A stretch of 64,000 bases of DNA from an uncultured Gammaproteobacteria bacterium (GCA_964589575.1 CAZPSE010000002.1:19658-83657), one strand, 5' to 3'; counted from the stretch's first letter, positions 731-56,290 are shown. The notes: generated by a model not told the origin, from the letters alone. Numbers and translations are program-made.

Positions 731-1053
731 ATAACGATTTAGCCAATAATTTGCCTAGCATTTAATTGGTATATGCCCTAAAAAAATCTAACCAAGGTAT
801 TTTGCTACAAAAGCATGCAATACGCTCATTCAATAAATTTTACCTATATATTACAAACAAAATAACGCAAGGTTTTGGCTTTGTAGCTTTCGTGCAACGG
901 CTTTTACAAATAAGTTACAAAGCGTTACAACGAAAACCCCACTTAATTGCTAAAATATACGTTAAGGGCACCTCTATTAATTATTGTTTTAGTTTATTAA
1001 TAGTAAGGGGTCGACGAAAACGGCCTGTTTTTAACCTTTTAAATTAATCAAAA

Positions 1054-2475
1054 ATGATTTCAAAAAAGTATTTTTCTAAAAATTATATATTGCTTGGTGC
1101 TTTATTTTTAAGTGCGTGTAGCAATTTGCCTAGCCATAAATCTACCCTTAATGATGACGCTAAAATTGTTTTTGCTAGTGAGGCGTTTTCTTTACAAGGT
1201 GAAAACAAAATTGCAAACGAATGGTGGCTGGCACTAAATGACCCAACCTTAAATAAAATAATTAACCAAGCGTTACAAAGCAATAACAGTTTAAAAGCAG
1301 GGCTAATAAAAATTAATCAATCTCGGCTGGCTTTACAATCGACCGAAGCCGGCCAAGCATTTACGTTAAACGGTACGGCGGGCATTAGCAATAACTCGGC
1401 AGACAAGTTTGGCATCTCTAGCAATGTAAATTCTTATTCAGTTGGTTTGTCTGCCGCTTACGAGTTAGACCTTTGGGGTAAGTTGAGCAATCAGGCCGAC
1501 AGTTCGGCTTTGGATATTAAGGCATCGTTATTAGATTATAAAACGCTGGCGATTTCTACCAGTGCCGATGTTGCGATTGCTTGGTATCGGTTGATTGAGC
1601 AAATGCAGCAATTGAATTTACTCGATCAGCAATTATTTATAACTGAAGGTTATTTACAGCTATTAGAGCAACAGTTTAGGTCGGGTCAGGCATTGGCGGC
1701 AGACGTTATACAGCAACGGCAAAGTGTTGAGTCGGTAAAGGGTGATTATTTTAATAGCAACAGGTTGTTGCAAAAATATAAAAGCCAATTGGCGTTATTG
1801 CTGGCAACACCCAGTTTTGATTTTGACCTACCTGTTAATTTAACCGTGCCTAATTTACCTGCCATGCCCGCATTGGGTTTAAAGGCCAAGGTGTTAAATA
1901 ATAGACCGGACGTACAAACCGCTTTTAATAATTTAGCCAAAGCAGATTTAGCCACCGCTATTGCTGTCGCTAGGCGTTATCCGTCTATTAATTTAACCGC
2001 CAGCTATAACCGTAATGGTTCTAGCTTAGCCAATATTTTTGACAACTGGGCATCGTCACTTGCCGCAAGTTTACTTATCCCTATTTTAGATGGCGATGCG
2101 ACAAAATTAGCGGTGACACAAAATGAATTAAGTTATCAACAAACTTTTTTGGCGTATCAAAACACTTTGTTGTTATCGGTTAAAGAAGTAGAAGACGCGT
2201 TGTTTAACGAAAAACAACAGCTTGGTTATTTGCAAAGCCTAAAAAAGCAACGTCAATATTCTGCCCAAGCGACGGAGCAAATTCGTCATAGTTATATTAA
2301 CGGTGCGTTAGATTTTCAACGTGTTTTAAATGCCGTCATAAGCGACCAAAACCTACAACGCAATTATATAAAAGCCAAAAGAGAATTAATGGAATACCGC
2401 ATTAGTTTATACCGAGCACTTTCGGGCGGCTGGGACAATACAAACCAGAAAGAGAAGTCACACCATGCAAAATAA
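1054..2475 (+). CDS. RND efflux system outer-membrane factor lipoprotein (TolC/NodT family)
   Basis: 473 aa with a lipoprotein signal and lipobox (LFLSAC). Typical OMF length. Start of the next gene overlaps its stop (ATGcaaaaTAA). Confidence 0.85.
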   Translation: MISKKYFSKNYILLGALFLSACSNLPSHKSTLNDDAKIVFASEAFSLQGENKIANEWWLALNDPTLNKIINQALQSNNSLKAGLIKINQSRLALQSTEAGQAFTLNGTAGISNNSADKFGISSNVNSYSVGLSAAYELDLWGKLSNQADSSALDIKASLLDYKTLAISTSADVAIAWYRLIEQMQQLNLLDQQLFITEGYLQLLEQQFRSGQALAADVIQQRQSVESVKGDYFNSNRLLQKYKSQLALLLATPSFDFDLPVNLTVPNLPAMPALGLKAKVLNNRPDVQTAFNNLAKADLATAIAVARRYPSINLTASYNRNGSSLANIFDNWASSLAASLLIPILDGDATKLAVTQNELSYQQTFLAYQNTLLLSVKEVEDALFNEKQQLGYLQSLKKQRQYSAQATEQIRHSYINGALDFQRVLNAVISDQNLQRNYIKAKRELMEYRISLYRALSGGWDNTNQKEKSHHAK

Positions 2476-3667
2476 ACCAAATAAACAATCTATGCTTAGC
2501 AAAATATTTATTTTTATTTTGGGCTTAGCCATTTTAGGTAGTGCTTTAGGGCTTGCACGGTATTTTATGCAAAACAAACCCACCGCAAAAAAGAAAACCC
2601 AAATTGTTAAAATTGCGCCTGTGGTTAGGGCAATTAAACTTGACGTTATTGACCACCAAATAAACATTGTTGCCATGGGTAATGTGGTTGCCGCACGTAA
2701 AATTAATTTGGTTTCTCAAGTAAAGGGTAAAATTATTGCCAGCCATCCCGACTTTTTACCGGGTGGCATTGTTTCTAAAGGCGAAACATTGGTAAAAATT
2801 AACGCTTTAGATTATGAATTAATAGCCGTTCAAAAAAACAGCGATGTAGTACGCGCAAAAAACGATTTATCTATAGAGATGGGTAAACAGTCTGTTGCCA
2901 AAAAAGAATACCGTTTATTGGGGGCAGATTTAGCGATAAAAGACCAAGAATTAATTTTAAGAAAACCGCAGTTACGCTTAACTAAGGCCAGCCTAGTTTC
3001 TGCCGAGGCGAAGTTAAAACAAGCCCAATTAGATGTGGCTAGAACCGCAATAAAAGCGCCTTTTAATGCGTTAATAGAAAGTAACAGTGTTAATACTGGC
3101 AGTTGGCAAAGTGTGGGTACCAACTTAGCCAGCCTTATTGATATTAATAATTACTGGGTTACTATTAGCCTACCAACCGACCGTTTGGCTTTTTTGCAAA
3201 TACCTGAGTTTAATTCTAAAAACGCCTCTAAAGCAGTTATTAAATACCCTTCTGCATGGGCAGAAAACACAAGAGCCGGTAAAATTAAACGTTTACAGCC
3301 TAATATAGATAGCAAAATTAGAATGGCTAAATTAACGGTAGAAGTAAACGACCCATTGTCGTTAAAAGCGTCCAATAAAAACAAACCTAAATTGTTGCTT
3401 GGTTCTTTTGTAGAGTTGCATTTAGCCGCAAAAAAATTAAACCATGTTGTACAAATCCCCCGCAGAGCTGTGCGTGATGGTAATAAAATTTGGCTAATAG
3501 ACAACAATAAGCTAAACATTGTGCCTATTAAACCGGTATGGAAAAACAAAAACTTTGTTTTTATTGACGCTAAAAGCCTCGATATTAATAAAAAACTAAT
3601 AATAAGTGACCTATCTTCGCCCATTGAAGCTATGAAACTTAAATTACAAAGTGAAACCAATGAGTAA
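2465..3667 (+). CDS. RND efflux membrane-fusion (periplasmic adaptor) protein, HlyD/AcrA family
   Basis: 400 aa with an N-terminal TM anchor and coiled-coil/beta-barrel adaptor-like composition. Translationally coupled to the flanking OMF and RND genes. Confidence 0.85.
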   Translation: MQNKPNKQSMLSKIFIFILGLAILGSALGLARYFMQNKPTAKKKTQIVKIAPVVRAIKLDVIDHQINIVAMGNVVAARKINLVSQVKGKIIASHPDFLPGGIVSKGETLVKINALDYELIAVQKNSDVVRAKNDLSIEMGKQSVAKKEYRLLGADLAIKDQELILRKPQLRLTKASLVSAEAKLKQAQLDVARTAIKAPFNALIESNSVNTGSWQSVGTNLASLIDINNYWVTISLPTDRLAFLQIPEFNSKNASKAVIKYPSAWAENTRAGKIKRLQPNIDSKIRMAKLTVEVNDPLSLKASNKNKPKLLLGSFVELHLAAKKLNHVVQIPRRAVRDGNKIWLIDNNKLNIVPIKPVWKNKNFVFIDAKSLDINKKLIISDLSSPIEAMKLKLQSETNE

Positions 3668-6600
3668 TTTAAAATCAGGCCCAATCGCATGGATGGCATC
3701 GCACCATGTGGCAGCCAATTTACTAATGGTTATTTGTTTGCTGGGCGGGTATATCTTTATGAAAGATATGAAACAGGAAGTGTTTCCCGAGTTTTCTGTC
3801 GATGTGGTTCAAATTCAAGTTGCCTACCCCGGTGCCAGCCCCCAAGAAATTGAAACAGGCATTATTTTAGCCATAGAAGAGGCGGTATCGGGCTTAGAAG
3901 GTATTGATTTTATGCGCTCGCGCGCGTCAGAAGGTGCAGCCTTTGTAAATTTAAATGCGCTAACCGATATTGACATAAATAAATTTGCACAAGACATACA
4001 AAAAGAGGTGGATAGAATTATCACCTTCCCTAATGGGGCAGAAACGCCCTCTATTACCATACTATCTACAAAACGGCGTGTCGTTTCTGTCGCCATGTAT
4101 GGCAATACTAGCACCGCTAATTTGCATCATTTAGCAGAAAATTTGCGCGAAACTTTTTTGGCAAATGAGCACATTACGCAAGTAGAAATTACCGGTGTGC
4201 CACCGCTAGAAATTTCTATAGAAGTGTCGCAAAAAGAACTGCGCCGTTACAACATAAGCTTAAACGATATTGCAGAAAAGCTGCGCGCTACCAGTATAGA
4301 CCTGCCTAGCGGAAGCATTAAAACATCTGGCGGTGAAATTTTAATACGCATGACCGAACGCCGAGAATTTGGAAAAGAATTTGGGCAAATTACCGTACTG
4401 TCTGATACCGACGGAAGCGAAGTAAAACTGGCCGATATTGCCACCATTAAAGATGCTTACGAAGACAATGATTACCACGCACTTTACAATAATAAAGCCG
4501 CCGTAATGTTAGACGTGTTTCGTATTGGTGACGAAACACCTACGCAAATTTCTAAAGTAGTGCATACAATTTTAGCAGCACATGAGGCAACATTACCCGA
4601 AGAAATTAAAATCAGTATTTTAAGTGACCGCTCTAAAATATTTGAACAACGCTTAGACTTATTATTAAAAAACAGTGCTTTAGGTTTAATTTTAGTATTA
4701 ATTTTTCTTGCCTTATTTTTAAACTTAAAGCTGGCCTTTTGGGTAATGATGGGTATTCCTATTTCTTTCCTTGGTTCTTTTTTAATACTGCCGCATTTAG
4801 GCGTGTCGATAAATATGATTTCGATGTTTGCGTTTATTATTGCCTTAGGCATTGTAGTAGACGATGCCATTGTGATTGGTGAAAACATTTACCACCATCG
4901 GCAACAAGGTATGAGCCCCGTAGACGCTGCAATTACAGGTGCTAAAGAAATGGCAACACCCGTTACTTTTAGCATATTAACCAATATTGTAACTTTTTTA
5001 CCTTTGGCATTTATCCCAGGGTTTATGGGCAATATATTTATTGTTATACCGGTTGTGGTTATTTCTGTATTTTTAATATCGCTATTAGAAAGTTTATTTA
5101 TACTGCCTGGGCATTTAAACAGCGCTAAAGAAAAAGACAAAACAAAAGCCGGCCATTGGTTTCATCAAAAACAACAAAAATTTAGCAAAGGTTTTGTAAG
5201 GTCTATAGATACTTACTTTATGCCAGCACTGGCTGTGGTATTAAAGTTTCGCTATCTATCTTTTATTGTTGCCATTGCCATTTTAGTTATAACACTAAGT
5301 TACGCGTTAAGTGGTCGCATGGGTTTAACCCTATTCCCAAAGGTAGAGTCGGACTTTTCTCGTGCGACTATTTTATTGCCTTACGGAACGCACATTAACA
5401 ATACCGAATCTATTGTTCGTTACGCCTACGACAAAGCTAAAGAGGCTGCGGGCGAACGTCATAACGAACTAATAAAAGGTATATTTGCCAGTGTTGGTAA
5501 AGGCGGCACACAAAATGCGACCGTTTATGTATATTTGGCCGAACCCGAAGTACGCGAACAAATCATGTCTACCGATGAATTTACCAACCGATGGCGTAAG
5601 GCAATTGGTAACGTAGCTGGGGTAGAATCCATTTTGTTTGAAGCCGATGCGGGCGGCCCTGGGTCGGGCAAAGCACTCACCATAGAATTAAACCATCGAG
5701 ACCTTAGCGTGTTAGAAAAAGCCAGTGCAGAATTGGCCGATGCGTTGCGTTTATACCCAAAAGTGAAAGACGTATATGACGGTTTTAGCCCGGGCAAACA
5801 ACAGCTCGACTTTACCATTAATGCGCTGGGTAAAAGCTTGGGCTTAACACCGCAAAGCATTGCCAGCCAAGTGCGTAATGCCTACCAAGGGTTAGAAGTA
5901 TTAAGGCAATTGCGTGGTCGAAACGAGCTAAAAGTTAAAGTGCGTTTACCCAAGTCTGAACGGGTTTCTGAATACAGTTTAGACGAATTAATTATACAAA
6001 CGCCACAAGGTAACGAAGTACCATTAAGAGATGTGGTGATTATAGAACGTGGACGCGCCTTTACAGAAATTAACCGCAGAGATGGACGGCGCGTGGTAGA
6101 AGTTAGCGCAGAACATTCACCACGTAGCGAAGCGTCGGCTGTGATTACCGATTTACAAATAGCAACCTTGCCCAACTTGTTAAAAAAATACCCTGGGTTG
6201 CAATATTCTTTAGAAGGCTCTCGTGCAGAAATGCGTAAAAGTTTGGGCAGTTTAATACCCATGTTTGGCATAGCCATGGTGGCAATTTACATGTTGTTAG
6301 CCATACCGTTTAGAAGTTACAGCCAACCGCTTATTATCCTTATTAGTATCCCGTTTGGTATTATTGGCGCAATATGGGGGCACCTAATAATGGGCTACAG
6401 CCTAAGCATAGTAAGTATGTTGGGCGTGGTTGCGTTGTCGGGCATTGTAGTTAATGATTCTTTAATATTAATTAATTATGCCAACCAGTTAAGAATTAAA
6501 ACCACAGCCAGCGCCTTAGAGGTTATTTCATTAGCAGCCAAACAACGCTTTAGGCCTATTTTAATTACCACCCTTACAACCTTTGGTGGTTTGTTCCCAA

Positions 6601-6776: not shown

Positions 6777-6784
6777 ATCGTCGA

Positions 6785-6806
6785 CCCCTTGCTTATTTGC
6801 AAGGGG
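6785..6806. terminator. Hairpin CCCCTTGC-ttattt-GCAAGGGG between the convergent RND and GGDEF genes. It is built from the recurrent GTCGACCCCTTGC motif and has no clean U-tract.
   Basis: Seen in sequence. Confidence 0.4.
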
Positions 6807-6821
6807 CAGTAAAAGCTGATA

Positions 6822-8507
6822 TTAATCACCAAACGTCGGGTTTAACTTATCTTCATGAAATAAATGCACTTGGTTTCTACCTGACTTTTTAGAAATATAA
6901 CACGACGAATCAGCACGGGACAAAACATCTTCGCTAGTACCACAGCCAGAATATATAGAGGTAACGCCCGCACTTATGCCAATACTAATAGTTGAACCGT
7001 CCCATTCAAAATCAATATTTTCAATGGCGATACGCATTTTTTCCATAATTAGCATGGCGTTTTCGGTGGAGCAATTCATTAATAATACGCTAAATTCATC
7101 GCCGCCTAATCGCGTTAAATAGTCCCCTTTTCGTAGTAATTTTTTAAATTCAAAAGCCACCTTTTTTAATAGTTCGTCCCCTGCTAAATGGCCATTATTA
7201 TCATTAACACTTTTAAAATTATCTAAGTCGATAAAACATAGGGCATGGCTGGTATCAAACGTATCGGCATCAATAACAGAAAGCCCTAATAACCGTTCAA
7301 ATTCTCTTCGGTTTAGCAAGCCTGTTAATGCATCATGACTGGCTAAATAAGATAATTTTTTAGCATGTTTCCAAGAATCCGTTATGTCCCTAATAATAAA
7401 AGAGTAGCCAATTTTTTTATTATCAGAGTTGGTTAATACATTGCACAATAATTCGAGATAATATTCTTTTTCTGATGGTGTGTTAAATTTTGCTTCTAAT
7501 TTGAAACTACCCAAAGGGCTATTATCAACCAAACCCATAATGGGAGAGAGTAATTCATCCGTTTCTATACTTTTTAATGAAAGCACGGTCTCTATTTTTT
7601 TAGCCAATAATTGATGCTGGCGTTGTTCAAACATCAATTGAGCCGATGCATTACTGTAAGTAATAATACCACTCAGGTCGGTCGATATTACCGCATCTGT
7701 AATGGTGTTTAAAATTACTGATACACGTTGTTGTGCTTCAAATAATAAATCGGATGTTTTTTTATGCCTAAGTGTTTCCGTTGTAAGCTCTTGCGTTCTT
7801 TGTTCTACTTTTAACCCTAACTGGCTGTGAGAATCGATTAATTTTTTGGCAATAACAATGCGCGAGTTTTGCATTGTGTTGTAAGCATCTATAACCAGGC
7901 TAAGTTCGTTATTGGCGTTATTGCTAATATCATTATGAACAGAGGTTTCATCATAATAATTAATCGCCTTAGTTAATTGGTTTAGTGGTTTACCAATAGC
8001 CACTTTGTAGGCTCTTTTTGTACCCACTAAAACAATTAAAATTAAAGCAAAAAGCAATAACAACTCGTAATAAACTCTTCTTTTTAAAGTAGCAAATATA
8101 TTATCTTCGGTAACAATCAGCGTGAAAAAACCAAGCAGTTTATAACCAGACTCGTCAGCAGCGTTGATACGCCTAGTAATTGTTAAGTACTTTTTTTCGG
8201 GGTATACATTGCCGTAAACTTCTAAAACGTTCTTTTCACTATCGGTGATTTTTAACCCTGCAATATCGGGGTCAGAAATTAAAGAAACACTAAAAAGCCC
8301 TAACGCATTGTTGTCTTTTTTAATAATAGAGTCGGCTAAAATTAAAGAATACACAGAAGAAAGGTTAGCAAGCTTGGCTTGCAGCTTTTTTTGAGAAGCT
8401 TGAAAATTACTCCACTCGAAAACACCAATTAATACAATAAAAACACTAATACACAAGGGCAATAAGGTTTTTAAAAAATGCTTATATACGCTCCCTTTTA
8501 TTTTCAT
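6822..8507 (-). CDS. Membrane-bound diguanylate cyclase with 2 TM segments around a periplasmic sensor domain, a PAS domain and a GGDEF domain (RLGGDEFSVLL)
   Basis: ORF track. Intact GGDEF motif and C-terminal GRNQV signature. Confidence 0.85.
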   Translation of the reverse strand: MKIKGSVYKHFLKTLLPLCISVFIVLIGVFEWSNFQASQKKLQAKLANLSSVYSLILADSIIKKDNNALGLFSVSLISDPDIAGLKITDSEKNVLEVYGNVYPEKKYLTITRRINAADESGYKLLGFFTLIVTEDNIFATLKRRVYYELLLLFALILIVLVGTKRAYKVAIGKPLNQLTKAINYYDETSVHNDISNNANNELSLVIDAYNTMQNSRIVIAKKLIDSHSQLGLKVEQRTQELTTETLRHKKTSDLLFEAQQRVSVILNTITDAVISTDLSGIITYSNASAQLMFEQRQHQLLAKKIETVLSLKSIETDELLSPIMGLVDNSPLGSFKLEAKFNTPSEKEYYLELLCNVLTNSDNKKIGYSFIIRDITDSWKHAKKLSYLASHDALTGLLNRREFERLLGLSVIDADTFDTSHALCFIDLDNFKSVNDNNGHLAGDELLKKVAFEFKKLLRKGDYLTRLGGDEFSVLLMNCSTENAMLIMEKMRIAIENIDFEWDGSTISIGISAGVTSIYSGCGTSEDVLSRADSSCYISKKSGRNQVHLFHEDKLNPTFGD

Positions 8508-12879: not shown

Positions 12880-13174
12880 GACCAATTAACTCGCTAGAGC
12901 ATTGGCAGTATACTAATAGCGCTAAGCCTTGCTTGTTCACAGCTTTATCGTGAACTAGCAAGGCTTACCAAGCGGGCTATTAGAGCATTATAAAATAACG
13001 TTATCGTCTGCCGTTTATAAGCCTCGCTAGTTTTGACTAAATCGTCTGGAACGATTTGGGGAGCGATAGCGACGTGCTAAGCACCAAGGGCAGGAAGCCC
13101 GAAGCAAAAACACCAAAACGAGCAATGCTTAACGCTAAGAGTTTGAAAATGCCAGTTAATCCGGTCTTCCTTAA
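12873..13174. mobile_element. MITE-like repeat, copy 1 (~300 bp). The right TIR CCAGTTAATCCGGTCTTCCTTAA is intact and the left TIR is degenerate, overlapping the dsbD stop codon.
   Basis: Internal modules are shared with copies at 24482, 31889 and 42234. Contains a 50-nt stem-loop AAGCCTTGCT-t-GTTCAC-agctttatc-GTGAAC-t-AGCAAGGCTT. Confidence 0.7.
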
Positions 13175-13182
13175 ATAAACCG

Positions 13183-13209
13183 CATGAGCAAGCAAGGCTT
13201 GCTCATGCA
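13183..13209. repeat. Perfect 12-bp-stem hairpin GCATGAGCAAGC-aag-GCTTGCTCATGC, immediately 5' of the DUF692 gene
   Basis: Seen in sequence. Shares the AGCAAGGCTT core with the MITE hairpins. Confidence 0.6.
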
Positions 13210-13212
13210 ATA

Positions 13213-14070
13213 ATGAGTATACAAATGTCAAAAACAGATTTTGTTGTAAAAGGTGCAGGCCTTGGTTTACGTCGTGACCGAATAGACGAAATGATTGACT
13301 ACCCCATGCCACAAGTAAACTTTATGGAAATTGCACCAGAAAACTGGATAGGTTTTGGTGGCCGCTATGCCAAAAAACTAAGGCACTTTACCGAACGGTT
13401 TGATTTTGTTTGTCATGGCTTATCATTATCTATTGGCGGCCCCACCGCAATAGACGTAGAACTGGTAAAAAACATTAAAACGTTAATGCAAGACCACAAT
13501 ATAAAAATATACAGCGAACACTTAACCTACTGTTCTGACGATGGTCATTTGTACGACTTACTGCCCATACCCTTTACAACAGAGGCGGTACATTATGTGG
13601 CAGACAGAATAAAACAAGTACAAGATATTTTAGAACAACAAATCGCGATAGAAAACGCCTCGTATTACGCCGTCGCGCATAAAGAAATGGAAGAAATTGA
13701 TTTTTTAAACGCCGTTATTGAAGAGGCAGACTGTGCATTATTGTTAGATGTAAACAACATATACGTAAACTCGGTTAATCATGGTTACGATGCCATAAAC
13801 TTTTTAGACAACATGCCAAAACACCGCATAGCCTATGCACATATTGCCGGTCACTATAATGAAGCAGATGATTTAATTGTAGACACCCACGGCGCAGATG
13901 TAATAGACCCCGTATGGAAAATATTAAATCACGCCTACAAACAGTTTGGTACGTTTCCAACATTATTAGAGCGCGACTTTAACATACCGCCCATAGCAAC
14001 CTTGTTAAACGAAGTAGAGCAAATACACCGCGCACAACAAAAAGCCGTTATAGAAGTAAGCAATGGCTAA
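13213..14070 (+). CDS. DUF692-family (MbnB/TglH-like, xylose-isomerase-like TIM barrel) protein
   Basis: 285 aa; the family assignment is from remembered conserved blocks. Confidence 0.8.
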   Translation: MSIQMSKTDFVVKGAGLGLRRDRIDEMIDYPMPQVNFMEIAPENWIGFGGRYAKKLRHFTERFDFVCHGLSLSIGGPTAIDVELVKNIKTLMQDHNIKIYSEHLTYCSDDGHLYDLLPIPFTTEAVHYVADRIKQVQDILEQQIAIENASYYAVAHKEMEEIDFLNAVIEEADCALLLDVNNIYVNSVNHGYDAINFLDNMPKHRIAYAHIAGHYNEADDLIVDTHGADVIDPVWKILNHAYKQFGTFPTLLERDFNIPPIATLLNEVEQIHRAQQKAVIEVSNG

Positions 14071-14863
14071 AACAACACTGCCCTTATTTCAGCAAAAACA
14101 ATACGAATTTACCGCCCATATACGCGACCCAAAAAACCATGCGCTACCAAAAAATGTAGAAGACCGACGCATGAATATTTACCGCGAGTTATTATTTAAT
14201 AACGTGGTCGAGTTTATAGGTAACGGGTTTCCCGTATTAAAAACCTTTTATAGTGAACAGCAATGGCTTAAAAATATACGATTATTTTATGCCCAATCAA
14301 ACAACCACTCTCCTTACTTTAAAGACATACCCGAGCAATACCTAACCTGGCTAGAAAGCCACTACCAAGTTAGCAACATCGACCCACCCTTTATGATGGA
14401 ATTAGCGCATTACGAATTAGTAGAGCTAATTTTAGATGTATCCGACGAGCATAATGATTTAGGCATAATAGATGCAAATGGCGACTTGTTAAATGAACGC
14501 CCTGTAATATCGTCTTTAGTTTGGCTACTAAACTACCAGTGGCCAGTACACTTATTAGATGCCCAGCAATACAACCCAACAAAAAAACCAGAACAACCCA
14601 GCTACCTAATTGTATTTAGAAACCGCAACGACAGCGTAGAGTTTGTAGAAAGCAACCCAGTAACCGCGCGCCTTTTAGAAATGCTACAAAATGACAACCA
14701 ACTAACAGGCCAACAAGCACTAACGCACATAGCAAAAGAAATGCAACACCCACAGCCAAAAGTTGTAATAGACGGCGGCTTACAAACATTACAAAACTTT
14801 CAAGAGCTGGGCATTATTTTAGGAACACAAATTTTAGATAATGACCAAATAAATAACCGCTAA
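14063..14863 (+). CDS. DUF2063-family (MbnC-like) partner protein
   Basis: 266 aa. Overlaps the DUF692 stop by 8 nt. The family assignment is from remembered N-terminal pattern. Confidence 0.7.
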   Translation: MAKTTLPLFQQKQYEFTAHIRDPKNHALPKNVEDRRMNIYRELLFNNVVEFIGNGFPVLKTFYSEQQWLKNIRLFYAQSNNHSPYFKDIPEQYLTWLESHYQVSNIDPPFMMELAHYELVELILDVSDEHNDLGIIDANGDLLNERPVISSLVWLLNYQWPVHLLDAQQYNPTKKPEQPSYLIVFRNRNDSVEFVESNPVTARLLEMLQNDNQLTGQQALTHIAKEMQHPQPKVVIDGGLQTLQNFQELGIILGTQILDNDQINNR

Positions 14864-14878
14864 AAAGCACCAAAACCG

Positions 14879-14938
14879 TTGCCTACATGGATGTAGGTAC
14901 ACAGAATTGCTTGGAGCATTATGCGTGCGACCCCTTGC
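14879..14938 (+). repeat. Family-B hairpin repeat, copy 1: TTGCCTACATGGATGTAGGTACACAGAATTGCTTGGAGCATTATGCGTGCGACCCCTTGC
   Basis: Near-identical copies, reverse-complemented, at 25411-25485 and 44227-44286. All three sit just 3' of + strand genes. Confidence 0.7.
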
Positions 14939-14949
14939 CTAAGCCTTCA

Positions 14950-15125
14950 TTAAGAAAATCCTGATTAACAGGCTAAAGCATGGTTTAAAATTTCATCTCG
15001 ACCAATGCGTGTAAGCATTGGCATTATACCAATAGCGCTAAGCCTTGCTTGTTCACAGCTTTATCGTGAACTAGCAAGGCTTAACGCTAATAGTTTGCAA
15101 CTCCAGTTAATCAGCACTTCCTTAT
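14950..15125. mobile_element. MITE-like repeat, copy 2 (176 bp). TIRs are TTAAGAAAATCCTGATTAACAGG and CCAGTTAATCAGCACTTCCTTAT.
   Basis: Both TIRs are present. Contains the GTTCAC/GTGAAC stem-loop module and lacks the GGGGAGCGATAGCGACGTG module. Confidence 0.7.
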
Positions 15126-15209
15126 AAAAACCAAACATTAAACATCATAAAACTTGTTCAAAGACGCTTACAATGAGAAAATGGTATTTTTCGTTTACTT
15201 CTAGGTTTT

Positions 15210-16859
15210 ATGGAACATACAAACACCCCAATAGACCACTTCATTGATCAAATCATCAAAGATGATATTCAAAAAGGCAAAAATGCAGGTAAAGTCATTA
15301 CGCGTTTCCCGCCAGAACCTAATGGCTACTTGCATATAGGGCATGCAAAATCCATCGTCTTAAATTTTGGCACAGCAAGTAAATATAAAGGCACATGCAA
15401 CCTACGTTTTGACGATACCAACCCAGAAAAAGAAGACAAAGAATTTGAGCTATCAATAAAAAAAGACGTTCAATGGCTAGGCTACAAATGGGATAGCTTG
15501 CATTATTCGTCTGATAATTTCCAGCAACTGTACAACTTTGCCATGCAACTTATTAAAGACGGAAAAGCCTATGTAGACAGTTTAAATGCAGAACAAATTA
15601 AACAGTACAGAGGCACACTAACCGAAGCTGGCAAAAACAGCCCAGACAGAGAAAACAGTATAGAAAAAAATATACAACTATTTGAAGCCATGAAAAACGG
15701 AGAATTTAAAGACGGCGAGCGCGTATTACGTGCAAAAATTGACATGTCATCACCCAATATCAACCTCCGTGACCCTGTTATATACCGTGTAAAACATGCA
15801 AAACACCACAGAACAGCTAATGATTGGTGCATATACCCAATGTACGACTACACCCACTGCATATCAGACGCGTTAGAAAACATAACCCATTCATTATGCA
15901 CATTAGAGTTTGAAGACCATCGCCCACTATACGACTGGGTTTTAAACCAACTGCCCATAAAATGTCACCCACAACAAATAGAGTTTTCTCGTTTAAATTT
16001 AGAATACACAATAATGAGCAAACGCAAACTGGCACAATTAGTGCAAAACAACCACGTATCAGGCTGGGACGACCCACGTATGCCAACCTTATCTGGCATG
16101 CGTCGCCGTGGCTACCCAGCACAAGCAATACGCCAATTTTGCGAGCGTATAGGCATAACCAAAAAAGATGCCACCATAGAAATGGGCGTATTAGAAAACC
16201 TAGTACGCGACAACCTAAACGACAATGCACCACGTGCAATGGCAGTTTTAGAGCCACTAAAAGTAACCATATCCAACTACCCAAAAAACCAAGTAGAAAT
16301 GGTCAACGCCAAAAACCACCCACAAAAACCAGAACTAGGCACGCGCGAAGTGCCATTTAGTAAAACGTTGTACATAGAACAAACCGACTTTTTAGAAGAT
16401 GCACCAAAAAAGTTTTTTAGACTCAGCATCGGCCGCGAAGTACGTTTTAAATACGCCTACTACTTAACTTGCACAAATATTGTTAAAGATGATAATGGCA
16501 ATATAACCGAAGTTATTTGTACCTACGACCCAACTACCAAAGGCGGACGATCCGAAGACGGACGAAAAATAAAAGGCACCATACACTGGGTAAGCGCAAA
16601 ACAAGCCATAGAAAAAGAGTTAATTTTGTACGACCGATTATTTAATGTTGCCAACCCAGGAACAAAAGGCGACTTTTTAGAGCAAATAAACCCAAGCTCG
16701 CAAATAACCTTAAACAATTGCAAACTAGAACCCATGCTAAACAACGCACCAACAAACCAAGTATACCAATTTGAAAGAATGGGCTATTTTTGCAAAGACA
16801 ACGCAGGGCATTACAACCGCACCATGACACTACGTGACTCATGGGCTAAAAAGAAATAA
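15210..16859 (+). CDS. glnS: Glutaminyl-tRNA synthetase
   Basis: 549 aa with the HIGH motif ([14 protein letters not shown]) and the KMSKS-type motif (IMSKR). Colinear with E. coli GlnS. Confidence 0.95.
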
Positions 16860-16901
16860 TGGTTAATGCTATTATTTTCACTATAATTAATAGCGTACAA
16901 T

Positions 16902-38932: not shown

Positions 38933-40558
38933 TTAATTAATTACGCTTGGCTTTTGCGCCAAGTAGTCTTCGTAATTACCTTTGTAATCTACCAAACCGT
39001 TATCCGTAAATTCGATAATACGCGTTGCTAAAGACGATACAAACGTTCTGTCGTGGCTTACAAATACTATCGTGCCTTCGTAATCTTCTAAGGCATTGTT
39101 TAAAGACTCTATAGATTCCATATCCAAGTGGTTGGTTGGCTCATCTAAAATTAATACGTTATCTTTTTGTAGTGTTAATTTAGCAAACAACATTCTCGAT
39201 TGCTCACCACCAGACAATACCTTAACCGACTTTTTAATGTTATCACCAGAAAACAACATACGACCCAATGTGCCACGTATTACTTGTTCATCATCGCCCT
39301 CTTTTGTCCACGGTACAATCCAATCCGTTAGGCTTACATCTTTTTCAAAGTCTTCATTATGGTCTTGTGCAAAGTAACCAATCTGTGCTTTTTCTGCCCA
39401 TTTTATCGACCCCTTGGTCATGGGTTTTTCACCCACTAAGGTTTTTAAGAAGGTGGTTTTACCTGCACCGTTAGGGCCAATTACGGCTAAACGCTCACCC
39501 GCTTCTAGCATAATGTCTAAACCAGAAAACAATGTTTCGTCGTAACCATTGGTCATGTTTTCTGTGGTGAATGCTAAACGATGCAATTTTTCGGCCGGTT
39601 CAAAACGTATATAGGGGCTTTTACGGCTTGACGGTTTTAATTTTTCGATATGAATTTTATCAATTTGTTTTTGACGCGACGTGGCTTGTTTAGACTTAGA
39701 TGCATTAGCAGAAAAACGAGAAACAAATGAACGCAACTCTGCAATTTGTTCTTTTTTACGGTCGTTAGATGCAACGGCTTGGTCTCTCGCTTGGGTAGAG
39801 GCTTCCATGTACTGGTCATAATTGCCGGGGTAAAGCTTTACTTCTCCGTAATCTAAATCTGCCATGTGGGTACAAACACTGTTTAAAAAGTGCCTGTCGT
39901 GGCTAATTATTACCATTGTACATTTGCGGTCTAACAAAATATCTTCCAACCAACGGATAGAGTTAATGTCTAGGTGGTTGGTGGGTTCATCTAATAATAA
40001 AATATCAGGGTCTCCAAATAAAGCTTGGGCTAGTAACACACGTAACTTCCAACCGGGTGCTACTTGTGCCATTAAACCGTCATGCAAGCGTGCTTCTATA
40101 CCTGCACCTAGCAATAATTCTCCTGCTCTGGCTTCGGCGGTGTAGCCGTCCATTTCGGCAAATTCGCCTTCTAACTCGGCCGCACGCATACCGTCATCTT
40201 CGGTCATGTCTGCGCCTTTATCGTAAATGGCATCACGCTCATGTTTTATTTTCCATAAAGCGGCATCCCCCATTATTACGGTATCTAAAACATTAAAATT
40301 TTCAAAACCAAACTGATCTTGCTGTAAGGTTGCCATAGATTCTGTGGGGCCAAAGCTTACGTTGCCTGCGGTTGCTTCTAAGTTTCCGTCCAATATTTTC
40401 ATAAAGGTGGACTTGCCCGAACCATTGGCACCAATCAAACCGTAACGGTTTCCGTCTTGAAATTTAACCGAAACGTTTTCAAAAAGTGGTTTTTCACCAA
40501 ACTGAATGGTGACATTAGAAGTAACTAGCACAAAAATACCCGAAATAAGATTTAACAA
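38933..40558 (-). CDS. ybiT: ABC-F family ATPase, YbiT orthologue
   Basis: Two ABC cassettes. The N-terminus aligns to E. coli YbiT ([46 protein letters not shown]). The true start may be GTG at 40532. Confidence 0.9.
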
Positions 40559-42156: not shown

Positions 42157-42233
42157 TTTAAATAAAACATTTTGAAAGAGTCTTCATTATAAATCACATG
42201 AAGGTTTTTATGATTAAAAAAAGACATTTTAAT

Positions 42234-42468
42234 TTAAGAAAACCTGATTAACTGAGTTAAAGCAGAGTTAAAAATTTAACCTTGGTTTATGCATAAATAT
42301 TGGCATTATAGTAATAGCGTTAAGCTTTGCTAGTTTTGACTAAATCGTCAGGAACGATTTGGGGAGCGATAGCGACGTGCGAAGCACCGAGGGCAGGAAG
42401 CCAGAAGCAAAAACACCTAAACGTGCAAGGCTTAACGCTATTATTTTGAATAACTCCAGTCCTTCAAT
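42234..42468. mobile_element. MITE-like repeat, copy 5. The left TIR TTAAGAAAACCTGATTAACTGAG is intact and the right TIR is degenerate (CCAGT--CCTTCAAT).
   Basis: Contains the GGGGAGCGATAGCGACGTG module shared with copies 1 and 3. Confidence 0.65.
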
Positions 42469-44226: not shown

Positions 44227-44286
44227 GCAAGGGGTCGCACGCATAATGCTCCAAGCAATTCTGTGTACCTACATCCATGTAGGCAA
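44227..44286 (-). repeat. Family-B hairpin repeat, copy 3 (reverse orientation)
   Basis: About 98% identical to the reverse complement of 14879-14938. Confidence 0.7.
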
Positions 44287-45641: not shown

Positions 45642-46517
45642 CTACTTCGCCATCGCCCTTATTGGCTTTAATTGAGACTCTCTAAAGCTGGCATCATTTA
45701 ACATACGTGTACCCAACAACGCATCGGGCACGTCTATATTTAACGCCATTTTTGTGGTTCGCATCATGCTCATCCGTTGATTAGCATGGTTTAATATTAG
45801 CAGTTGTTTTGCCACCCAAATACCGTCTACTTTTTGCACACGTTGATTAAGTAAAGTCTTTTTCAATTTGCCTTGGCGGTCATACATTTCTATTTTTAAA
45901 ACCAGTAATCGGTCTTTGTCTACCCAGTTTTTAGTGTATGAGTACGACGTTTTTGTTGCTTGTTGCGGGGTTGGTGTGCTTTTAATTACCCATACAGGCC
46001 GCTTACTTTGTGTGCTTTCTTTCAGTAACTCATAGGTATAATCATTAATGTGGCGTTTTTCTATGTCTTCATAAGACAATTCTGAACCAAATAAACTGCC
46101 CGTTTTTGCGCCGTCATCGGTTTCGGAAATAATGCGCTTTAGTTTTCGCATGGCGGGTAAGTACATCCACTGCTGCGAGTCTTTGGCATTGTCGTCGTAA
46201 TCGTTTTGTAAAAACGCCATGCCTTTTTCAGACGCAGGTTTAATAATTATATTTAAACCACGGCTGTCTTTTAAGTTATCACCTATGTCTTTATTTAAAC
46301 CTTCAAACTGTTTTACACGCGGTTTACTTATGCACTTGTACTTGCCATCTTTAACTTTAAAACGGCAACTCATTAACTGGCTTTGGCTATAGCTGGTTTT
46401 ACCGTCGTCTCGGTCTAACACTTTTTGCATAATTTCTTTTGCAGTGGGTGTTGCACTTACACTTTGGCTAATAAAAATAGCACCGGCTATAAGCGTATTA
46501 ATTAGTAATTTTTTCAT
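45642..46517 (-). CDS. LolA-like outer-membrane lipoprotein-sorting-type periplasmic protein
   Basis: Signal peptide. Resembles proteins annotated as outer membrane lipoprotein-sorting protein that accompany HAE3-type RND exporters. Confidence 0.5.
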   Translation of the reverse strand: MKKLLINTLIAGAIFISQSVSATPTAKEIMQKVLDRDDGKTSYSQSQLMSCRFKVKDGKYKCISKPRVKQFEGLNKDIGDNLKDSRGLNIIIKPASEKGMAFLQNDYDDNAKDSQQWMYLPAMRKLKRIISETDDGAKTGSLFGSELSYEDIEKRHINDYTYELLKESTQSKRPVWVIKSTPTPQQATKTSYSYTKNWVDKDRLLVLKIEMYDRQGKLKKTLLNQRVQKVDGIWVAKQLLILNHANQRMSMMRTTKMALNIDVPDALLGTRMLNDASFRESQLKPIRAMAK

Positions 46518-49113
46518 TTTCTGCCTTAATTTTTGCTATTTCTTTTTCAAAAGGTTTAAACACGTAAATCATCGCGGGTAATAATAAAATATCCGCTAGC
46601 AGTGCGGTAAACATGGCAATGGCCGCCAAAATACCAAAGTTAGATAAACCTTGATGCACCGATAGTAAAAACACTAAAAAGCCCAATGATAAAACGATAG
46701 AGGTATACACCATCGCTTGCCCCACATGTTTAAGGCTAGACTTAATAGCCTGTTTAGAATTTTTGCCACTTAATAACTCGGTTCGGTAGTGGGTTAAAAA
46801 GTGAATAGAGTCATCTACCGCAATGCCTATGGCTAGGGGCATCACCAGTAAGGTGTCCATGTCTAACGCAATGCCTGCCCAACCGGTTACCCCCATAAGC
46901 ATAATAATAGGGAATATATTGGGCACCATCGCCATCGCACCAAATTTTAATGAGCCAAATATCAGCAATAACAACACGGCAATAACCGCAATAACCAACA
47001 CGTACGATTTGACTTGAGCGTTAGATATAAACTCCATCATGGTCATCATTAACGGCACACTACCGGTTACCGATGTTTTAAAGTCGGGGTTTTGTGCGCG
47101 TATGTCGGCAAAACTTTCATCCATCCAAACATTTATTTCTTCGGTAAATGTGGCGTATTGTGTCGACCCCTTGGTTAGTACACTTATGGTTAAACGGGCT
47201 ACTTGCCATTCGTCATCTACAAACAGTTTTCGGGTGGCACTGTCTGCCGACTCAAAACTAAACAAGGTTTGCGATAGCACATCGGGGTCGTTTGGAATAA
47301 TGTAGTTTTCACCACTGCCATCGGTCATATTTTGATACGAGCGTTTAGCCAGTTTGACTACCGAATCTACTTTACTCACTAAGTCGGGTCGGCCATTGAG
47401 GATTTTTTGCTCTAAAACATCAATCGCTTTTAGTAGTTGTGGGTTTTTAATACCGTCAGGCGAGCCTGAATCTATCAATATCTCAGCTGTTGATGTGCCA
47501 CCAAAATTACCATCAATTTCACGCAAAGCCAAACGCAAACCGGGGCCTTCTTTAATCATGGTGGTAATGTTGGTGTCTATAAACACTTTAGGAATACCTG
47601 CTAAACCAATGGCACTTACGACTATAAAAATAAAAATAATGCGTTTGGGGTAATTTAACCCCCAATCATAAATAACCATTAAGCCGTCTTGCAATTTTTG
47701 GTCAATAGGGCGTATTTTAATTTCACCCGACTTACTGGTAACTTTAGGTGCCCAGTAATGCATACCTACTGGCAAGTAAATAAGGGTTAATACAAACGTT
47801 ACCACCACACTGGTGGCGGCAAAACCTGCAAATGCTTGAATAGGTGCAATGGGCACCACCAACATAGATAACATACCGGCAATGGTTGTAATGGCCGCCA
47901 ATAGTATTGGTAAGCCTGTTTTACGCATGGTTTTACGCATCGCGTCTTGATGTTCTAAACCGCCTTGACGGTACTGTTTATAACCCGATAAAATATGAAT
48001 AGAGGCTGCAATGCCGACCGTTAATATTAAAAATACTATAATATTAATTAGCATATTTACCGCAATACCGCTCCAACCGATTAATCCAAGCGTCCAAATA
48101 ATACCCACACCAACAATAACAGTTGGCCAAATCATACCCGGTAAAGAGCCAACCACTAACCATAAAACAGCCAAAATAAGCACCATAGATAACACCGAGT
48201 ACATAGCCATTTCTTGCAGAACAACTTTATTAAAAAAGTCCATCATCCACGGGTTACCAACGGCTAAATAACCCATTGCTCCTGCATCTGGCGTTAGGCC
48301 TTTTTGCCAGTTTTGTTCTTTTAATACCACTCTAAATGCGGCCATAAAGTCGCTAAATTCTGGCATTCCTGGTGTTTCAAATTTAGGTATCTCTTTGGGG
48401 TCTAAACTTAACCCAGACGGTCTATCTATTACCGCATCAAAATCAAAACTTAATTCATCATCTATTACTATTTTAGCTAAGTTACCACCATCGTTAATTT
48501 CTTCGGTATTTTTTAATCGCGAACCGTAATCGGTTTGAATCATCATTATGCCAAGGGTAGAATCTTTAGAAAACATTCTGCCCGCATAATCATCTTCCTC
48601 TAGTGCCAACTTTCTAATCAACTCTACTTCTGCCGCACTTTTGGGTATGTTATTTTTACCAATAAATTTTCTATTAATCAGTGCATCATCAGTTGTTTCT
48701 AAATAATCGGCAGAGTAAATGCTACGAACTCGGGTAATTCTATTGAGTTCAGAATCTGCTTTAACGCGCTCTTTATTTAGCGCGTCTTCTAAATTTTTTA
48801 CTAAATTTAAACTCTCGGCACTAAACACATCCCCGTCAGAGGGCTTAAACATCATTATTAAAAACTGATCGCCACCAAATAAAAAGTGAAACACATCGTA
48901 AGAATGTAAAGCAGGGTCGTCGGTATTAAAAAATGCCTCCATCGACATATCTAATTTAATACGCGGTATGCCCGCCATAAAAAAAAGGGTTAATAGCAAC
49001 AAAGAAAGCACTAATTTTTTTGCATGCTTTACAGAAAAATCGGGGATTTTCTCCATCGTATTGGTAATACCCGTTAGTACCTTATTTACTTTAGATATAA
49101 ATGTATTGGCCAT
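46498..49113 (-). CDS. RND-superfamily exporter of the HAE3/MMPL type
   Basis: 871 aa with two bundles of TM helices, each preceded by a large periplasmic loop. Confidence 0.8.
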   Translation of the reverse strand: MANTFISKVNKVLTGITNTMEKIPDFSVKHAKKLVLSLLLLTLFFMAGIPRIKLDMSMEAFFNTDDPALHSYDVFHFLFGGDQFLIMMFKPSDGDVFSAESLNLVKNLEDALNKERVKADSELNRITRVRSIYSADYLETTDDALINRKFIGKNNIPKSAAEVELIRKLALEEDDYAGRMFSKDSTLGIMMIQTDYGSRLKNTEEINDGGNLAKIVIDDELSFDFDAVIDRPSGLSLDPKEIPKFETPGMPEFSDFMAAFRVVLKEQNWQKGLTPDAGAMGYLAVGNPWMMDFFNKVVLQEMAMYSVLSMVLILAVLWLVVGSLPGMIWPTVIVGVGIIWTLGLIGWSGIAVNMLINIIVFLILTVGIAASIHILSGYKQYRQGGLEHQDAMRKTMRKTGLPILLAAITTIAGMLSMLVVPIAPIQAFAGFAATSVVVTFVLTLIYLPVGMHYWAPKVTSKSGEIKIRPIDQKLQDGLMVIYDWGLNYPKRIIFIFIVVSAIGLAGIPKVFIDTNITTMIKEGPGLRLALREIDGNFGGTSTAEILIDSGSPDGIKNPQLLKAIDVLEQKILNGRPDLVSKVDSVVKLAKRSYQNMTDGSGENYIIPNDPDVLSQTLFSFESADSATRKLFVDDEWQVARLTISVLTKGSTQYATFTEEINVWMDESFADIRAQNPDFKTSVTGSVPLMMTMMEFISNAQVKSYVLVIAVIAVLLLLIFGSLKFGAMAMVPNIFPIIMLMGVTGWAGIALDMDTLLVMPLAIGIAVDDSIHFLTHYRTELLSGKNSKQAIKSSLKHVGQAMVYTSIVLSLGFLVFLLSVHQGLSNFGILAAIAMFTALLADILLLPAMIYVFKPFEKEIAKIKAENEKITN

Positions 49114-52710: not shown

Positions 52711-52841
52711 AATTAATAGTTCCTCGGTATTTGTTTACATAAAAATGTGGCTTAAATTCAAACTTTCAAGCTGTTTTAAACTAAAGACGGGATTCAACTT
52801 GTGAACAAATATTTTCTAAACAAGGCTAGATGGCGCCTCTA

Positions 52842-53023
52842 TTAAGGAAGGCCTGATTAACTGGAGTATTTGTTTTATAGAGGCATTAAAAACAATAATT
52901 AATACTTTTTTAAACAATATAACGTTAGTTACAGCCACCCTTTAGGTGACAAGTGCCTTATACAGGTCGCAAATTGTTTACAAAAATTAAAACTACGCGA
53001 CACCGATTTTGTTAAGGAAGACC
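52842..53023. mobile_element. MITE fragments: an intact left TIR TTAAGGAAGGCCTGATTAACTGG at 52842-52864, then about 150 bp of unrelated sequence, then a second left-TIR half (TTAAGGAAGACC) at 53012-53023
   Basis: Seen in sequence; no matching right TIR. Confidence 0.45.
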
Positions 53024-55183: not shown

Positions 55184-55681
55184 ATGGCAACAGAGCGAGC
55201 AGTATTAGCAGGGGGTTGTTTTTGGGGCATGCAAGACTTAATACGTAAACTAAAAGGCGTACAAACCACCAAGTGCGGTTACACAGGCGGAGACGTAGCC
55301 AATGCAACTTACAAAAACCATGGTACACATGCAGAAGCACTAGAAATTGTTTTTGATAACAAGCTGATAAGTTATCGCGAAATATTAAGTTGGTTTTTCC
55401 AAATCCATGACCCATCAACCTTAGACAGGCAAGGCAATGACCAAGGCAGTGCCTACCGATCTGAAATTTTTTACACCACCGATGAGCAAAAAACAAATGC
55501 ATTAAAAACAATAGATGATGTAAATGCATGTGGGTTATGGCCAGGCGCAGTAGTTACCAAAGTAAGCCCAATTAGTGATTTTTGGGATGCCGAGCCGGAA
55601 CATCAAGATTATTTAGAACGCTTTCCTAACGGTTATACTTGTCATTACCCGCGTGCAGGTTGGGTATTGCCAGAGTCTTGA
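55184..55681 (+). CDS. msrA: Peptide-methionine (S)-S-oxide reductase
   Basis: [10 protein letters not shown] active-site motif. Confidence 0.9.
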
Positions 55682-55741
55682 TTGCGGTTGGTAAAGGTAC
55701 TGGCCTTTTGGTGTGCAGAAGCGGTATTTTTACCTTTAAAT

Positions 55742-56290
55742 TTAAATGCGTGCTACAAAATTAGGCAAAAAGAATTCTGCAACCAGTAGGGGTTTATTTT
55801 CTAAATAAAAAACAGAACGCCTGCCCCATACCTCACTATCGTCAGGCATTAGCACACAAGTAATTTCAATAGGGTCACGAACCATATCCGGTTGAGAAAA
55901 CAAATAAGCACCCAGCGGTTTGTTGTTAAGCTGAGTTAATTCTTTTTGTTTGCCTGTTAGCGTAGAAAGCGGGATAACCGTTCGGGCAAAAACAGACTCG
56001 GCTTTATTGCAAAGTAATAACACTTCTCTTACGTTTGCGATACTGCTATCGGCCACGTTTAAAGCATCGGCTTCATTTTTGTAAATTCGATCTTCATTTT
56101 GTTTTAGCAAATTGACACTAAACTGATTATTACTAAAGGCAATTAAACGTTTAGTCAAAGACCCTTCGTCAACCAACCAGTTTAAAAGCTCGCTTTTCGG
56201 CTCAAACTGTCGACCCCTTGCTACAAATTTTGCCGTAATGGGCAACCACTGCGTTTGCGGTAAATGTTTTTTTAAAACGTCAATATTCAT
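55742..56290 (-). CDS. ubiC: Chorismate pyruvate-lyase
   Basis: Blocks DEGSLTKRL, REVLLC, VFARTVIP, GAYLF, WGRRS and KPLLVAEFFLP match UbiC. The ORF track extends to 56323, but the internal Met start at 56290 is preferred. Confidence 0.7.
   Translation of the reverse strand: MNIDVLKKHLPQTQWLPITAKFVARGRQFEPKSELLNWLVDEGSLTKRLIAFSNNQFSVNLLKQNEDRIYKNEADALNVADSSIANVREVLLLCNKAESVFARTVIPLSTLTGKQKELTQLNNKPLGAYLFSQPDMVRDPIEITCVLMPDDSEVWGRRSVFYLENKPLLVAEFFLPNFVARI

Follow-up and report, generated by a model that had tools for sequence, protein, structure and literature searches.

Sequence-specific DNA uptake has been known since about 1980 from two families only, as restated in papers of late 2025 (PMC12616744). 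Uptake signal sequences (USSs) and DNA uptake sequences (DUSs) show a reading-frame bias and even spacing, and their dyad pairs serve as terminators (PMC2817400). Uptake sequences generally favor one orientation within genes (PMC2346458), and DUS dialects follow phylogeny (PMC3630211). The Apl-type USS of the Pasteurellaceae, ACAAGCGGTC, is carried by A. pleuropneumoniae and M. haemolytica, and this 10-mer is present in 429-506 copies per 2.2-2.7 Mb, i.e. about one per 5 kb, at a 181-187-fold enrichment (PMC1626085). The receptor is ComP in Neisseria and has only been predicted in the Pasteurellaceae (PpdA/ComN). Here we analyze a 64,000-nt stretch of DNA from an uncultured Gammaproteobacteria bacterium (GCA_964589575.1, CAZPSE010000002.1:19658-83657; hereafter the window) that carries multiple copies of a 10-mer, CAAGGGGTCG. 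The 11-nt core of this motif, CAAGGG(G/T)TCGA, is ~200 times more frequent than expected by chance in a group of uncultured gammaproteobacteria, and analogy with the described systems makes a DNA-uptake-enhancing role of the USS/DUS type, in a new, third lineage, fairly probable.

Over-representation and placement of the motif

CAAGGGGTCG or its complement is found in 11 exact copies in the window, eight on the minus and three on the plus strand, in agreement with an earlier annotation made without database searches (the sequence-only reading). Dinucleotide shuffles yielded an expectation of 0.05, and none of 100 shuffles gave 11 copies; the order-3 Markov expectation for the 10-mer was 0.046, which corresponds to ~240-fold enrichment. 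When the k-mers of the window were ranked without bias against the order-3 Markov model, CAAGGGGTCG and its extensions were the top over-represented 9- to 12-mers, and the classical uptake cores AAGTGCGGT, ACAAGCGGT(C) and GCCGTCTGAA showed no enrichment. The 11-mer core of this G-dialect is CAAGGGGTCGA, and the degenerate form of the core is CAAGGNNTCGA. The motif occurs about once per 5-6 kb. One-off copies are rare, as allowing one mismatch added merely four further sites in the window; perfect and one-off copies number 15 and 4 for the G-dialect and 13 and 4 for the T-dialect of relatives described below. Perfect copies also exceed one-offs in Hin-type genomes (PMC1626085).

The copies and the features associated with them are listed below. 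Most of the coordinates given in the sequence-only reading were exact, and three were off by one (14928, 23420 and 39407 were found here); the near-copy that it had placed near 1005 is the one-off copy at 1004-1013.

6782-6791, minus strand: core copy, G-dialect; intergenic between a convergent RND gene (ends at 6776) and GGDEF gene (ends at 6822); full extended form AAGCAAGGGGTCGACGATTTAGGCCCTTTTTT
6799-6807, plus strand: partial inverted copy GCAAGGGGC; pairs with the 6782 copy in a hairpin of -17 kcal/mol
14928-14937, minus strand: core copy, long form; intergenic, interrupted after core position +9 and before the A at +10 by a 48-nt hairpin element (14880-14927)
23420-23429, minus strand: core copy in pabB; sense, S-K-G-S-I-K as against V-A-G-S-V-K in E. 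coli PabB, no indel
25412-25421, plus strand: core copy, long form; between convergent genes, 6 nt past the stop, followed by a 99-nt variant insert (25422-25520) and then ACGATTTAAGCCTTTTTTT
30909-30918, plus strand: core copy in bioF; sense, AAG CAA GGG GTC GAC GAT, no indel relative to solved BioF structures
32218-32227, minus strand: core copy in a LysM/FimV-like gene; antisense in the signal peptide (LLASTPC)
34135-34144, minus strand: core copy; intergenic between convergent genes, 36 nt past the stop of a DUF2889 gene; extended form CAAGGGGTCGACGCTACAAGCCTTTTTT
39407-39416, minus strand: core copy in ybiT; sense, K-G-S-I, no indel relative to the ortholog of a relative (L003)
44228-44237, plus strand: core copy, long form; between convergent genes, 28 nt past the stop, with a 48-nt insert (44238-44285)
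47164-47173, minus strand: core copy in an MMPL/HAE3 RND transporter gene (46498-49113); sense, frame K-G-S
56211-56220, minus strand: core copy in ubiC; sense, frame R-G-R, in the poorly conserved N-terminal part
1004-1013, plus strand: one-off copy TAAGGGGTCG with the typical flank ACGAAAACGGCCTGTTTTT; flagged as terminator-like, upstream of an RND operon
60894-60924, no strand assigned: inverted pair of a one-off variant, CCACCCCTTG-N11-CAAGGGGTGG, with an identical change in both arms
28944-29654, minus strand: ComF/GntX-like gene, scoring below NCBIfam cutoffs; no other competence-related gene lies in the window

A simple gene model gives a coding fraction of 87% for the window. Five of the 11 copies are intergenic, which is more than expected (P = 0.009), and four of these five lie between convergent gene ends, 6-36 nt past a stop codon. 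The other six are intragenic, five of them in sense orientation (pabB, bioF, ybiT, the MMPL/HAE3 transporter gene and ubiC) and one antisense (the LysM/FimV-like gene). The frames named in the sequence-only reading were recovered (KGS in pabB, ybiT and the RND gene, RGR in ubiC, QGVD in bioF and antisense STPC in the LysM/FimV-like gene), and the 16-mer shared by pabB and ybiT and the 18-mer shared by pabB and ubiC are both real. Its hairpin at 6780-6806 also exists, with the folding energy listed above, but is built from one full copy and a 9-nt partial inverted copy and not from two full copies. Across all loci, 15 of the 24 copies are located in open reading frames (ORFs), i.e. 62% as compared with ~87% coding DNA; published proportions of uptake sequences in ORFs are 65%, 49% and 34.5% (PMC2817400). 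Intragenic copies at all loci are sense in 11 cases and antisense in four, which is not significant; the coding-strand excess in A. pleuropneumoniae is 63% (PMC2817400), against 11/15 here. The copies in the window are spaced more evenly than random (coefficient of variation 0.585, P = 0.048). Roughly equal numbers in the two orientations are typical of USS/DUS; the strand split of 8:3 in the one region seen is not significant (P = 0.23). Inverted pairs do exist, with dyad pairs in the relatives L099 and L107 and a partial dyad at 6782.

Substitution origin and the extended unit

In the gap test of Redfield et al. (PMC1626085), H. influenzae USSs were found to arise by mutation and not by copying, and the same test was applied here. 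At the motif in ybiT, the window reads AAG GGG TCG ATA where the 93% identical L003 ortholog has GCA GGA ACC ATT (A-G-T-I), amounting to seven substitutions in 12 nt with no indel, and the residue triplet varies in a third ortholog too. Alignments with solved structures are gapless through the motif both for BioF (KQGVDDFG vs TEGARRYG) and for PabB (SKGSIK vs VAGSVK); the motif is fitted around conserved Gly/Ser codons, and the copies of all three genes occupy variable residues. The copy in the LysM-like gene likewise aligns with homologs without gaps, and that in ubiC falls in the unconserved N-terminus. These alignments indicate that the copies in ybiT, bioF and pabB arose by substitution, not as a mobile repeat.

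The true unit spans ~30 bp, in which the 11-mer core is joined by a GCC block 9 nt further on and by an A/T tract. All 23 independent short copies, from all genomes together, have A at +10; C or T is found at +11, and 20 of the 23 have A at -2. In the G-dialect, the GCC block occupies +19 to +21, 9 nt past the core (with G, C and C in 8, 9 and 8 of 10 independent copies, against a background of ~0.19 per base), and an A/T run follows it. The A/T tract lies ~14-17 nt downstream of the core; in the T-dialect, a T-tract accompanies all intergenic copies, and the intragenic copies have T at 24 of the 36 positions of +24 to +27 (P = 3e-6). The unit is not palindromic. The folds of all copies are heterogeneous, and merely the 6782 copy with its 9-nt partial inverted copy clearly beats shuffled sequence; a common RNA or DNA hairpin was therefore rejected, and the conserved feature is the sequence. 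A CsrA site, considered on account of ACAAGGAU in a variant pair of L107, was rejected too, as the main dialects carry GGG and not GGA and antisense copies are conserved. The pair at 60894-60924 is possibly a degenerate dyad kept as a hairpin, as by compensatory mutation.

Three copies (14928, 25412 and 44228) share an identical downstream flank of 44 nt and belong, as the sequence-only reading had it, to a longer repeat. This flank is part of a 48-nt element (14880-14927 and 44238-44285, with the 99-nt variant at 25422-25520) that has small subterminal hairpins and sits exactly between core +9 and the A at +10. Past the element, the usual flank ACGATTT…T-run resumes with copy-specific differences, and the outer flanks of the three copies differ. 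The position of the insert and the differing outer flanks suggest that three pre-existing copies were struck by a small insertion element; since the identical flank belongs to this separate element, it provides no evidence that the motif itself is a mobile repeat. The element resembles a tiny target-site-specific insertion element (miniature inverted-repeat transposable element (MITE)- or IS200/IS605-like behavior) with the motif as its target.

Two dialects among relatives

Homolog searches placed the organism of the window among uncultured gammaproteobacteria, with close relatives at 61-93% amino acid identity and named genera (Marinobacterium, Oceanospirillum, Methylomonas and others) at only 52-71%; the best named protein matches were to Marinobacterium, Oceanospirillum and Methylococcales, at 55-71%. 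L108, a Logan contig that belongs to the same species, matches 7.2 kb of the window at 99.93% identity and retains the 6782 copy. L099 (ENA, 5 kb, 37% GC; BioF 67% identical) carries four exact G-dialect copies (P ~1e-12), two of them at orthologous sites (the bioF codons and the LysM signal-peptide codons) and two forming an inverted pair with 22-nt arms. In more distant relatives (two metagenome-assembled genomes (MAGs) and one SRA assembly), no G-dialect copy was found, and their own top oligomer is CAAGGGTTCGA, which differs by one base. This T-dialect amounts to 13 copies in 62 kb against 0.087 expected, in four unlinked loci from three assemblies:

L100, MAG GCA_054032215.1, 9.2 kb: six CAAGGGTTCG copies
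L106, MAG GCA_054032215.1, 23 kb: two CAAGGGTTCG copies
L107, SRR18725158, 19 kb: four CAAGGGTTCG copies and an inverted pair of CAAGGATTCG
L001/L002, GCA_015487625.1, 10 kb: one CAAGGGTTCG copy

The four loci differ in gene content (priA-bioF, RND/pilus region, RND/desaturase region and ybiT). Nine T-dialect copies are intragenic (six sense, three antisense); the four intergenic ones include a perfect dyad that is flanked by convergent genes in L107. The dialects are mutually exclusive, G being confined to the window, L108 and L099, and T to L100/L106, L107 and L001. The comparison with relatives proposed in the sequence-only reading separated two lineages. Neither outcome that this reading had named as refuting was seen, as the enrichment recurs in unlinked loci of other genomes and only three of the 11 window copies trace to an amplified repeat.

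The LysM signal-peptide site connects the two dialects. Amid ~70% identity, 18 nt are identical between the window and L099 at this site. L100 has TCG AAC CCT TGC (SNPC) where the G-dialect genomes have TCG ACC CCT TGC (STPC); the dialect base switched in place with lineage and altered the protein by a Thr-to-Asn change. The LysM-like gene of L100 had been called with a start (4749) too far downstream; the open frame from ~4626 (4626-4749) encodes a signal peptide, …FSLLLSNPC…, orthologous to those of the window and L099. The bioF site of the 30909 copy also has a copy in L099 and none in the T-dialect locus L100. In L107, the inverted pair of CAAGGATTCG (3243-3283) lies downstream of a gene and might represent either a dyad in decay or a third, minor dialect.

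An outgroup locus (L109; YbiT 73%) has no member of the motif family. It contains at least seven copies of an extragenic repeat of >70 nt (…CGTCATAACGAGGCGGACGG…CCGCCG…) in gene-poor gaps (3800-5200 and 8200-8450), a classical repetitive extragenic palindromic (REP)/MITE pattern unlike the motif. The window has several intergenic repeat families of its own, clustered at 12896-13211, 14947-15129, 24479-24825, 31889-32142, 42230-42450 and 52839-52864; they include a hairpin TAAGCCTTGCTnGTTCAC…GTGAACnAGCAAGGCTTA (nine arm copies), ends CCAGTTAATCAG…CTTCCTTAA and a 72-nt unit ACTAAATCGT…GGGGAGCGATAGCGACGTGC, and gave no Rfam match. These MITE-like families are absent from every relative locus examined, whereas the motif is clade-wide, and they are therefore regarded as species-specific mobile repeats. 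The L001 locus (10.3 kb) contains CAAGCCTTC/GAAGGCTTG four times within 10 kb, a sequence that recalls the AGCAAGGCTTA hairpin arms in the window.

The Rfam search of the whole window gave no match, and full-text searches of the literature returned primers and similar strings, nothing relevant, for the literal motif and nothing for the MAG and SRA accessions of the relatives. A genome-collection scan with AAGCAAGGGGTCGACG was uninformative, yielding among the matches listed single chance hits in unrelated high-GC genomes, and a viral scan with CAAGGGGTCGACGCTA gave chance matches alone. The metagenome scan with AAGCAAGGGGTCGACGNTNNNNGC returned three chance matches at 62-63% GC; this pattern was too narrow because the 5′ AAG and the ACGNT flank vary in relatives.

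As for competence genes, the comF gene noticed in the sequence-only reading is the ComF/GntX-like gene listed above, beside which the window holds otherwise ordinary housekeeping genes. ComF-like genes are near-universal, so its presence says nothing about uptake. L106 carries a type IV minor-pilin operon at 13344-20483 (GspH/FimT-like, Tt1218-like, PilW, PilX, PilY1-like VWA and PilE-like) that adjoins RND genes, with a T-dialect copy at 20573, between the end of the preceding gene and the start of the first gene of the operon. The PilE-like pilin matches PF16732 (ComP_DUS) with 76 bits, but its best alignments are with generic pilins, P. aeruginosa PilE among them, and its matches to solved pilins include no structure of a Neisseria ComP. 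It is a candidate receptor only.

Further features of the window concern other genes. An MbnB/TglH/ChrH-family enzyme gene followed by a DUF2063/NGO1945-like gene (13213-14863) forms a pair typical of modification cassettes for peptides of the ribosomally synthesized and post-translationally modified type, and the motif copy at 14928 comes after it. Two tandem porin paralogs (18213-20591) share 81-94% identity across the 5′ ends of the genes and the regions upstream of them (~74 nt and ~36 nt), which suggests duplication or gene conversion. Two short ORFs with transposase helix-turn-helix domains (58763-59879), remnants of insertion sequences, have no motif copy in or near them.

Weighing the readings of the motif

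Of the described uptake sequences, the Apl type has a core identical at 8/10 positions (xCAAGxGGTC). A random 10-mer reaches 8/10 against any known uptake core with a probability of ~0.004, so that this match is suggestive but no proof of homology. Density (~1 per 5 kb) and enrichment (~180-240-fold) are alike in both, as are the coding-strand excess in genes and the substitution origin, and the A/T-rich segments published 3′ of the Apl core have a counterpart in the A/T tract 14-17 nt 3′ of the core here. Unlike the Apl type, the motif belongs to a host outside the Pasteurellaceae, its core has GGGGT or GGGTT in place of the family-wide GCGGT, and its flank has the GCC block and a differently spaced T-tract; uptake function has been demonstrated for the Apl type, whereas the motif is known here from sequence alone. 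Membership in the Pasteurellaceae USS, which would require a host of this family and a core of the pattern ANNNGCGGT, was rejected on taxonomy and core sequence, and no Pasteurellaceae were among the best named homologs listed. The Hin-type USS, AAGTGCGGT, has the same architecture of a core with helically spaced A/T tracts, even spacing and more perfect copies than one-offs, but its core differs and its density is ~5 times higher. The Neisseriaceae DUS, GCCGTCTGAA, resembles the motif in its 10-12 nt non-palindromic core, lineage-following one-base dialects, dyad pairs in terminators and intragenic copies; it is unrelated in sequence, lacks flanking motifs and has a known receptor, ComP.

The density, the enrichment, the few one-offs, the ~60% of copies in genes, the inverted pairs at convergent gene ends and the even spacing match USS/DUS, and an uptake signal is therefore the best reading. 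USS/DUS are characterized by a non-palindromic core of 9-12 nt that is enriched at least ~100-fold and present roughly once per 1-5 kb. As far as sequence can tell, all the hallmarks of USS/DUS are present, namely enrichment, substitution origin, flanks, dyads, even spacing, conservation and dialect. Of the two classes left open by the sequence-only reading, the USS/DUS-like one passed the sequence-level tests that were run, and the REP-like one was rejected, as genes contain more than half of the copies, in frame and indel-free, and the motif is non-palindromic. By analogy with the known systems, competent cells would bind the motif on double-stranded DNA at their surface, probably via a minor pilin of a type IV pilus, and would preferentially take up motif-bearing, conspecific fragments. 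Recombination of this DNA would spread match-improving mutations (molecular drive) wherever protein function tolerates them. A change in receptor specificity, re-tuning one core position from G to T or the reverse, may have produced the two dialects, and intergenic copies, often inverted pairs or with T-runs at convergent gene ends, would double as terminator-like hairpins. It is the step from a hyper-abundant, dialect-bearing motif to biased uptake via a pilus receptor that we infer.

Several observations weigh against an uptake signal. In >40 years, the use of uptake sequences has been demonstrated for just two families (PMC12616744), so the prior is low. The density of the 10-mer is ~5 times below the 9-10-mer densities of H. 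influenzae or Neisseria. The case for a genome-wide distribution rests on ~130 kb from five assemblies, of which L099 is syntenic with part of the window, and L003, the closest relative by YbiT (2 kb), has no motif copy. The 8:3 strand split and the 11:4 sense excess, neither of which is significant, leave room for some polarity. The ComP_DUS Pfam match was rejected as receptor evidence after comparison with solved structures, in which the pilin was closest to the generic PilE type.

The alternative readings, listed under the label ALTERNATIVES, account for parts of these data. The motif might be the site of another sequence-specific DNA transaction, Chi-like (RecBCD/AddAB) or HIP1-like (methylation/repair), with copies gathered by selection or biased repair, although we regard this as unlikely. 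Both dialects contain TCGA and the G-dialect GTCGAC, the copies are intragenic, substitution-derived and lineage-specific, and the motif is G-rich with CAAGGGGTCG on the minus strand in 8/11 cases while the GC skew of the window is negative over 8-52 kb. Moreover, HIP1 (GCGATCGC) of cyanobacteria is a likewise abundant, clade-conserved, intragenic oligomer, a precedent for such an oligomer that need not be a classical USS. HIP1 is a palindromic octamer recognized by methylases, whereas the motif is asymmetric and ~30 bp long. Chi sites are 5-8 nt long and few-fold enriched, and the ~240-fold enrichment and ~30-bp consensus are unlike them. The mixed orientation, which the sequence-only reading had held against Chi-like polarity, was recovered as the 8:3 split, but this split alone is insufficient to exclude polarity; it is the close inverted pairs that contradict it, and the strand bias is not significant. 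Chi/KOPS-type polar motifs, which are 5-8 nt long, strongly strand-polar and modestly enriched and lack extended flanks, fit poorly, at the scale of the loci compared, with the ~30-bp span, the 240-fold enrichment and the inverted pairs within 30-40 nt. The enrichment in intergenic regions and terminators would also be left unexplained. An RNA or transcription element, be it an intrinsic-terminator module or the site of an RNA-binding protein with the intragenic copies as by-products, appears improbable. It would fit the 9/11 window copies that are sense to the local transcription unit, the intergenic copies 6-36 nt past stops with T-runs after them, and the terminator-like folds at 6782 and 1004; yet most folds are no better than shuffled, with unstructured intragenic copies, antisense orientation is found in four of the intragenic copies, among them the LysM signal-peptide copy, which shows the strongest conservation, and a terminator within bioF, pabB or ybiT would be harmful. 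A terminator role does not discriminate between the readings because it is a known secondary property of USS/DUS.

Regional clustering of a parS-, matS- or KOPS-like site for a chromosome-organization protein would be compatible with the fact that one region of the source genome was examined and that L099 is syntenic to it. This reading is very improbable, as the T-dialect is enriched in four unlinked loci of differing gene content and the motif is non-palindromic and found in both orientations within tens of bases. Its density is above that of known parS/matS/KOPS-type systems. We give hardly any credence to transposition of a REP/REPIN, MITE or Ssn-associated hairpin repeat as the source of the copies. 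Such repeats are, like the motif, short, abundant and lineage-specific, with doublets that can form hairpins; three copies share the identical 44-nt flank, L099 and L107 have inverted doublets, and true MITE-like repeats abound in the window. Against this, 15/24 copies are intragenic, in frame and indel-free, the unit is not palindromic, and the shared flank is a separate 48-nt element within pre-existing copies. REP/REPIN elements are palindromic, extragenic and tied to a transposase gene, and the true extragenic repeats of the window and L109 look different, those of the window being species-specific. The NTS/SRM repeats are palindromic hairpins of 20-50 nt around GIY-YIG ssn genes (ssnA), whereas the motif copies are mostly intragenic substitutions; the NTS/SRM class was rejected, since the motif lacks palindromic symmetry and the search of the window revealed no GIY-YIG gene.

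If the motif is an uptake sequence, its implications concern the evolution of self-recognition. We are evenly divided on the further proposal that a third lineage, composed of uncultured environmental gammaproteobacteria and unrelated to the Pasteurellaceae at the family level, uses genome-wide uptake sequences with two dialects for self-DNA discrimination, and that the Apl-like core reflects deep common USS ancestry in Gammaproteobacteria or convergence. A third lineage with two natural dialects would provide an independent test of the co-evolution of receptor specificity and genome motif, and would help to decide between an ancient and a convergent origin of USS-type recognition in Gammaproteobacteria. 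It would also show self-biased transformation in free-living uncultured bacteria, beyond host-associated ones. In practice, DNA constructs with the motif could render these organisms transformable, and the motif may be of use as a binning and taxonomy marker for their MAGs.

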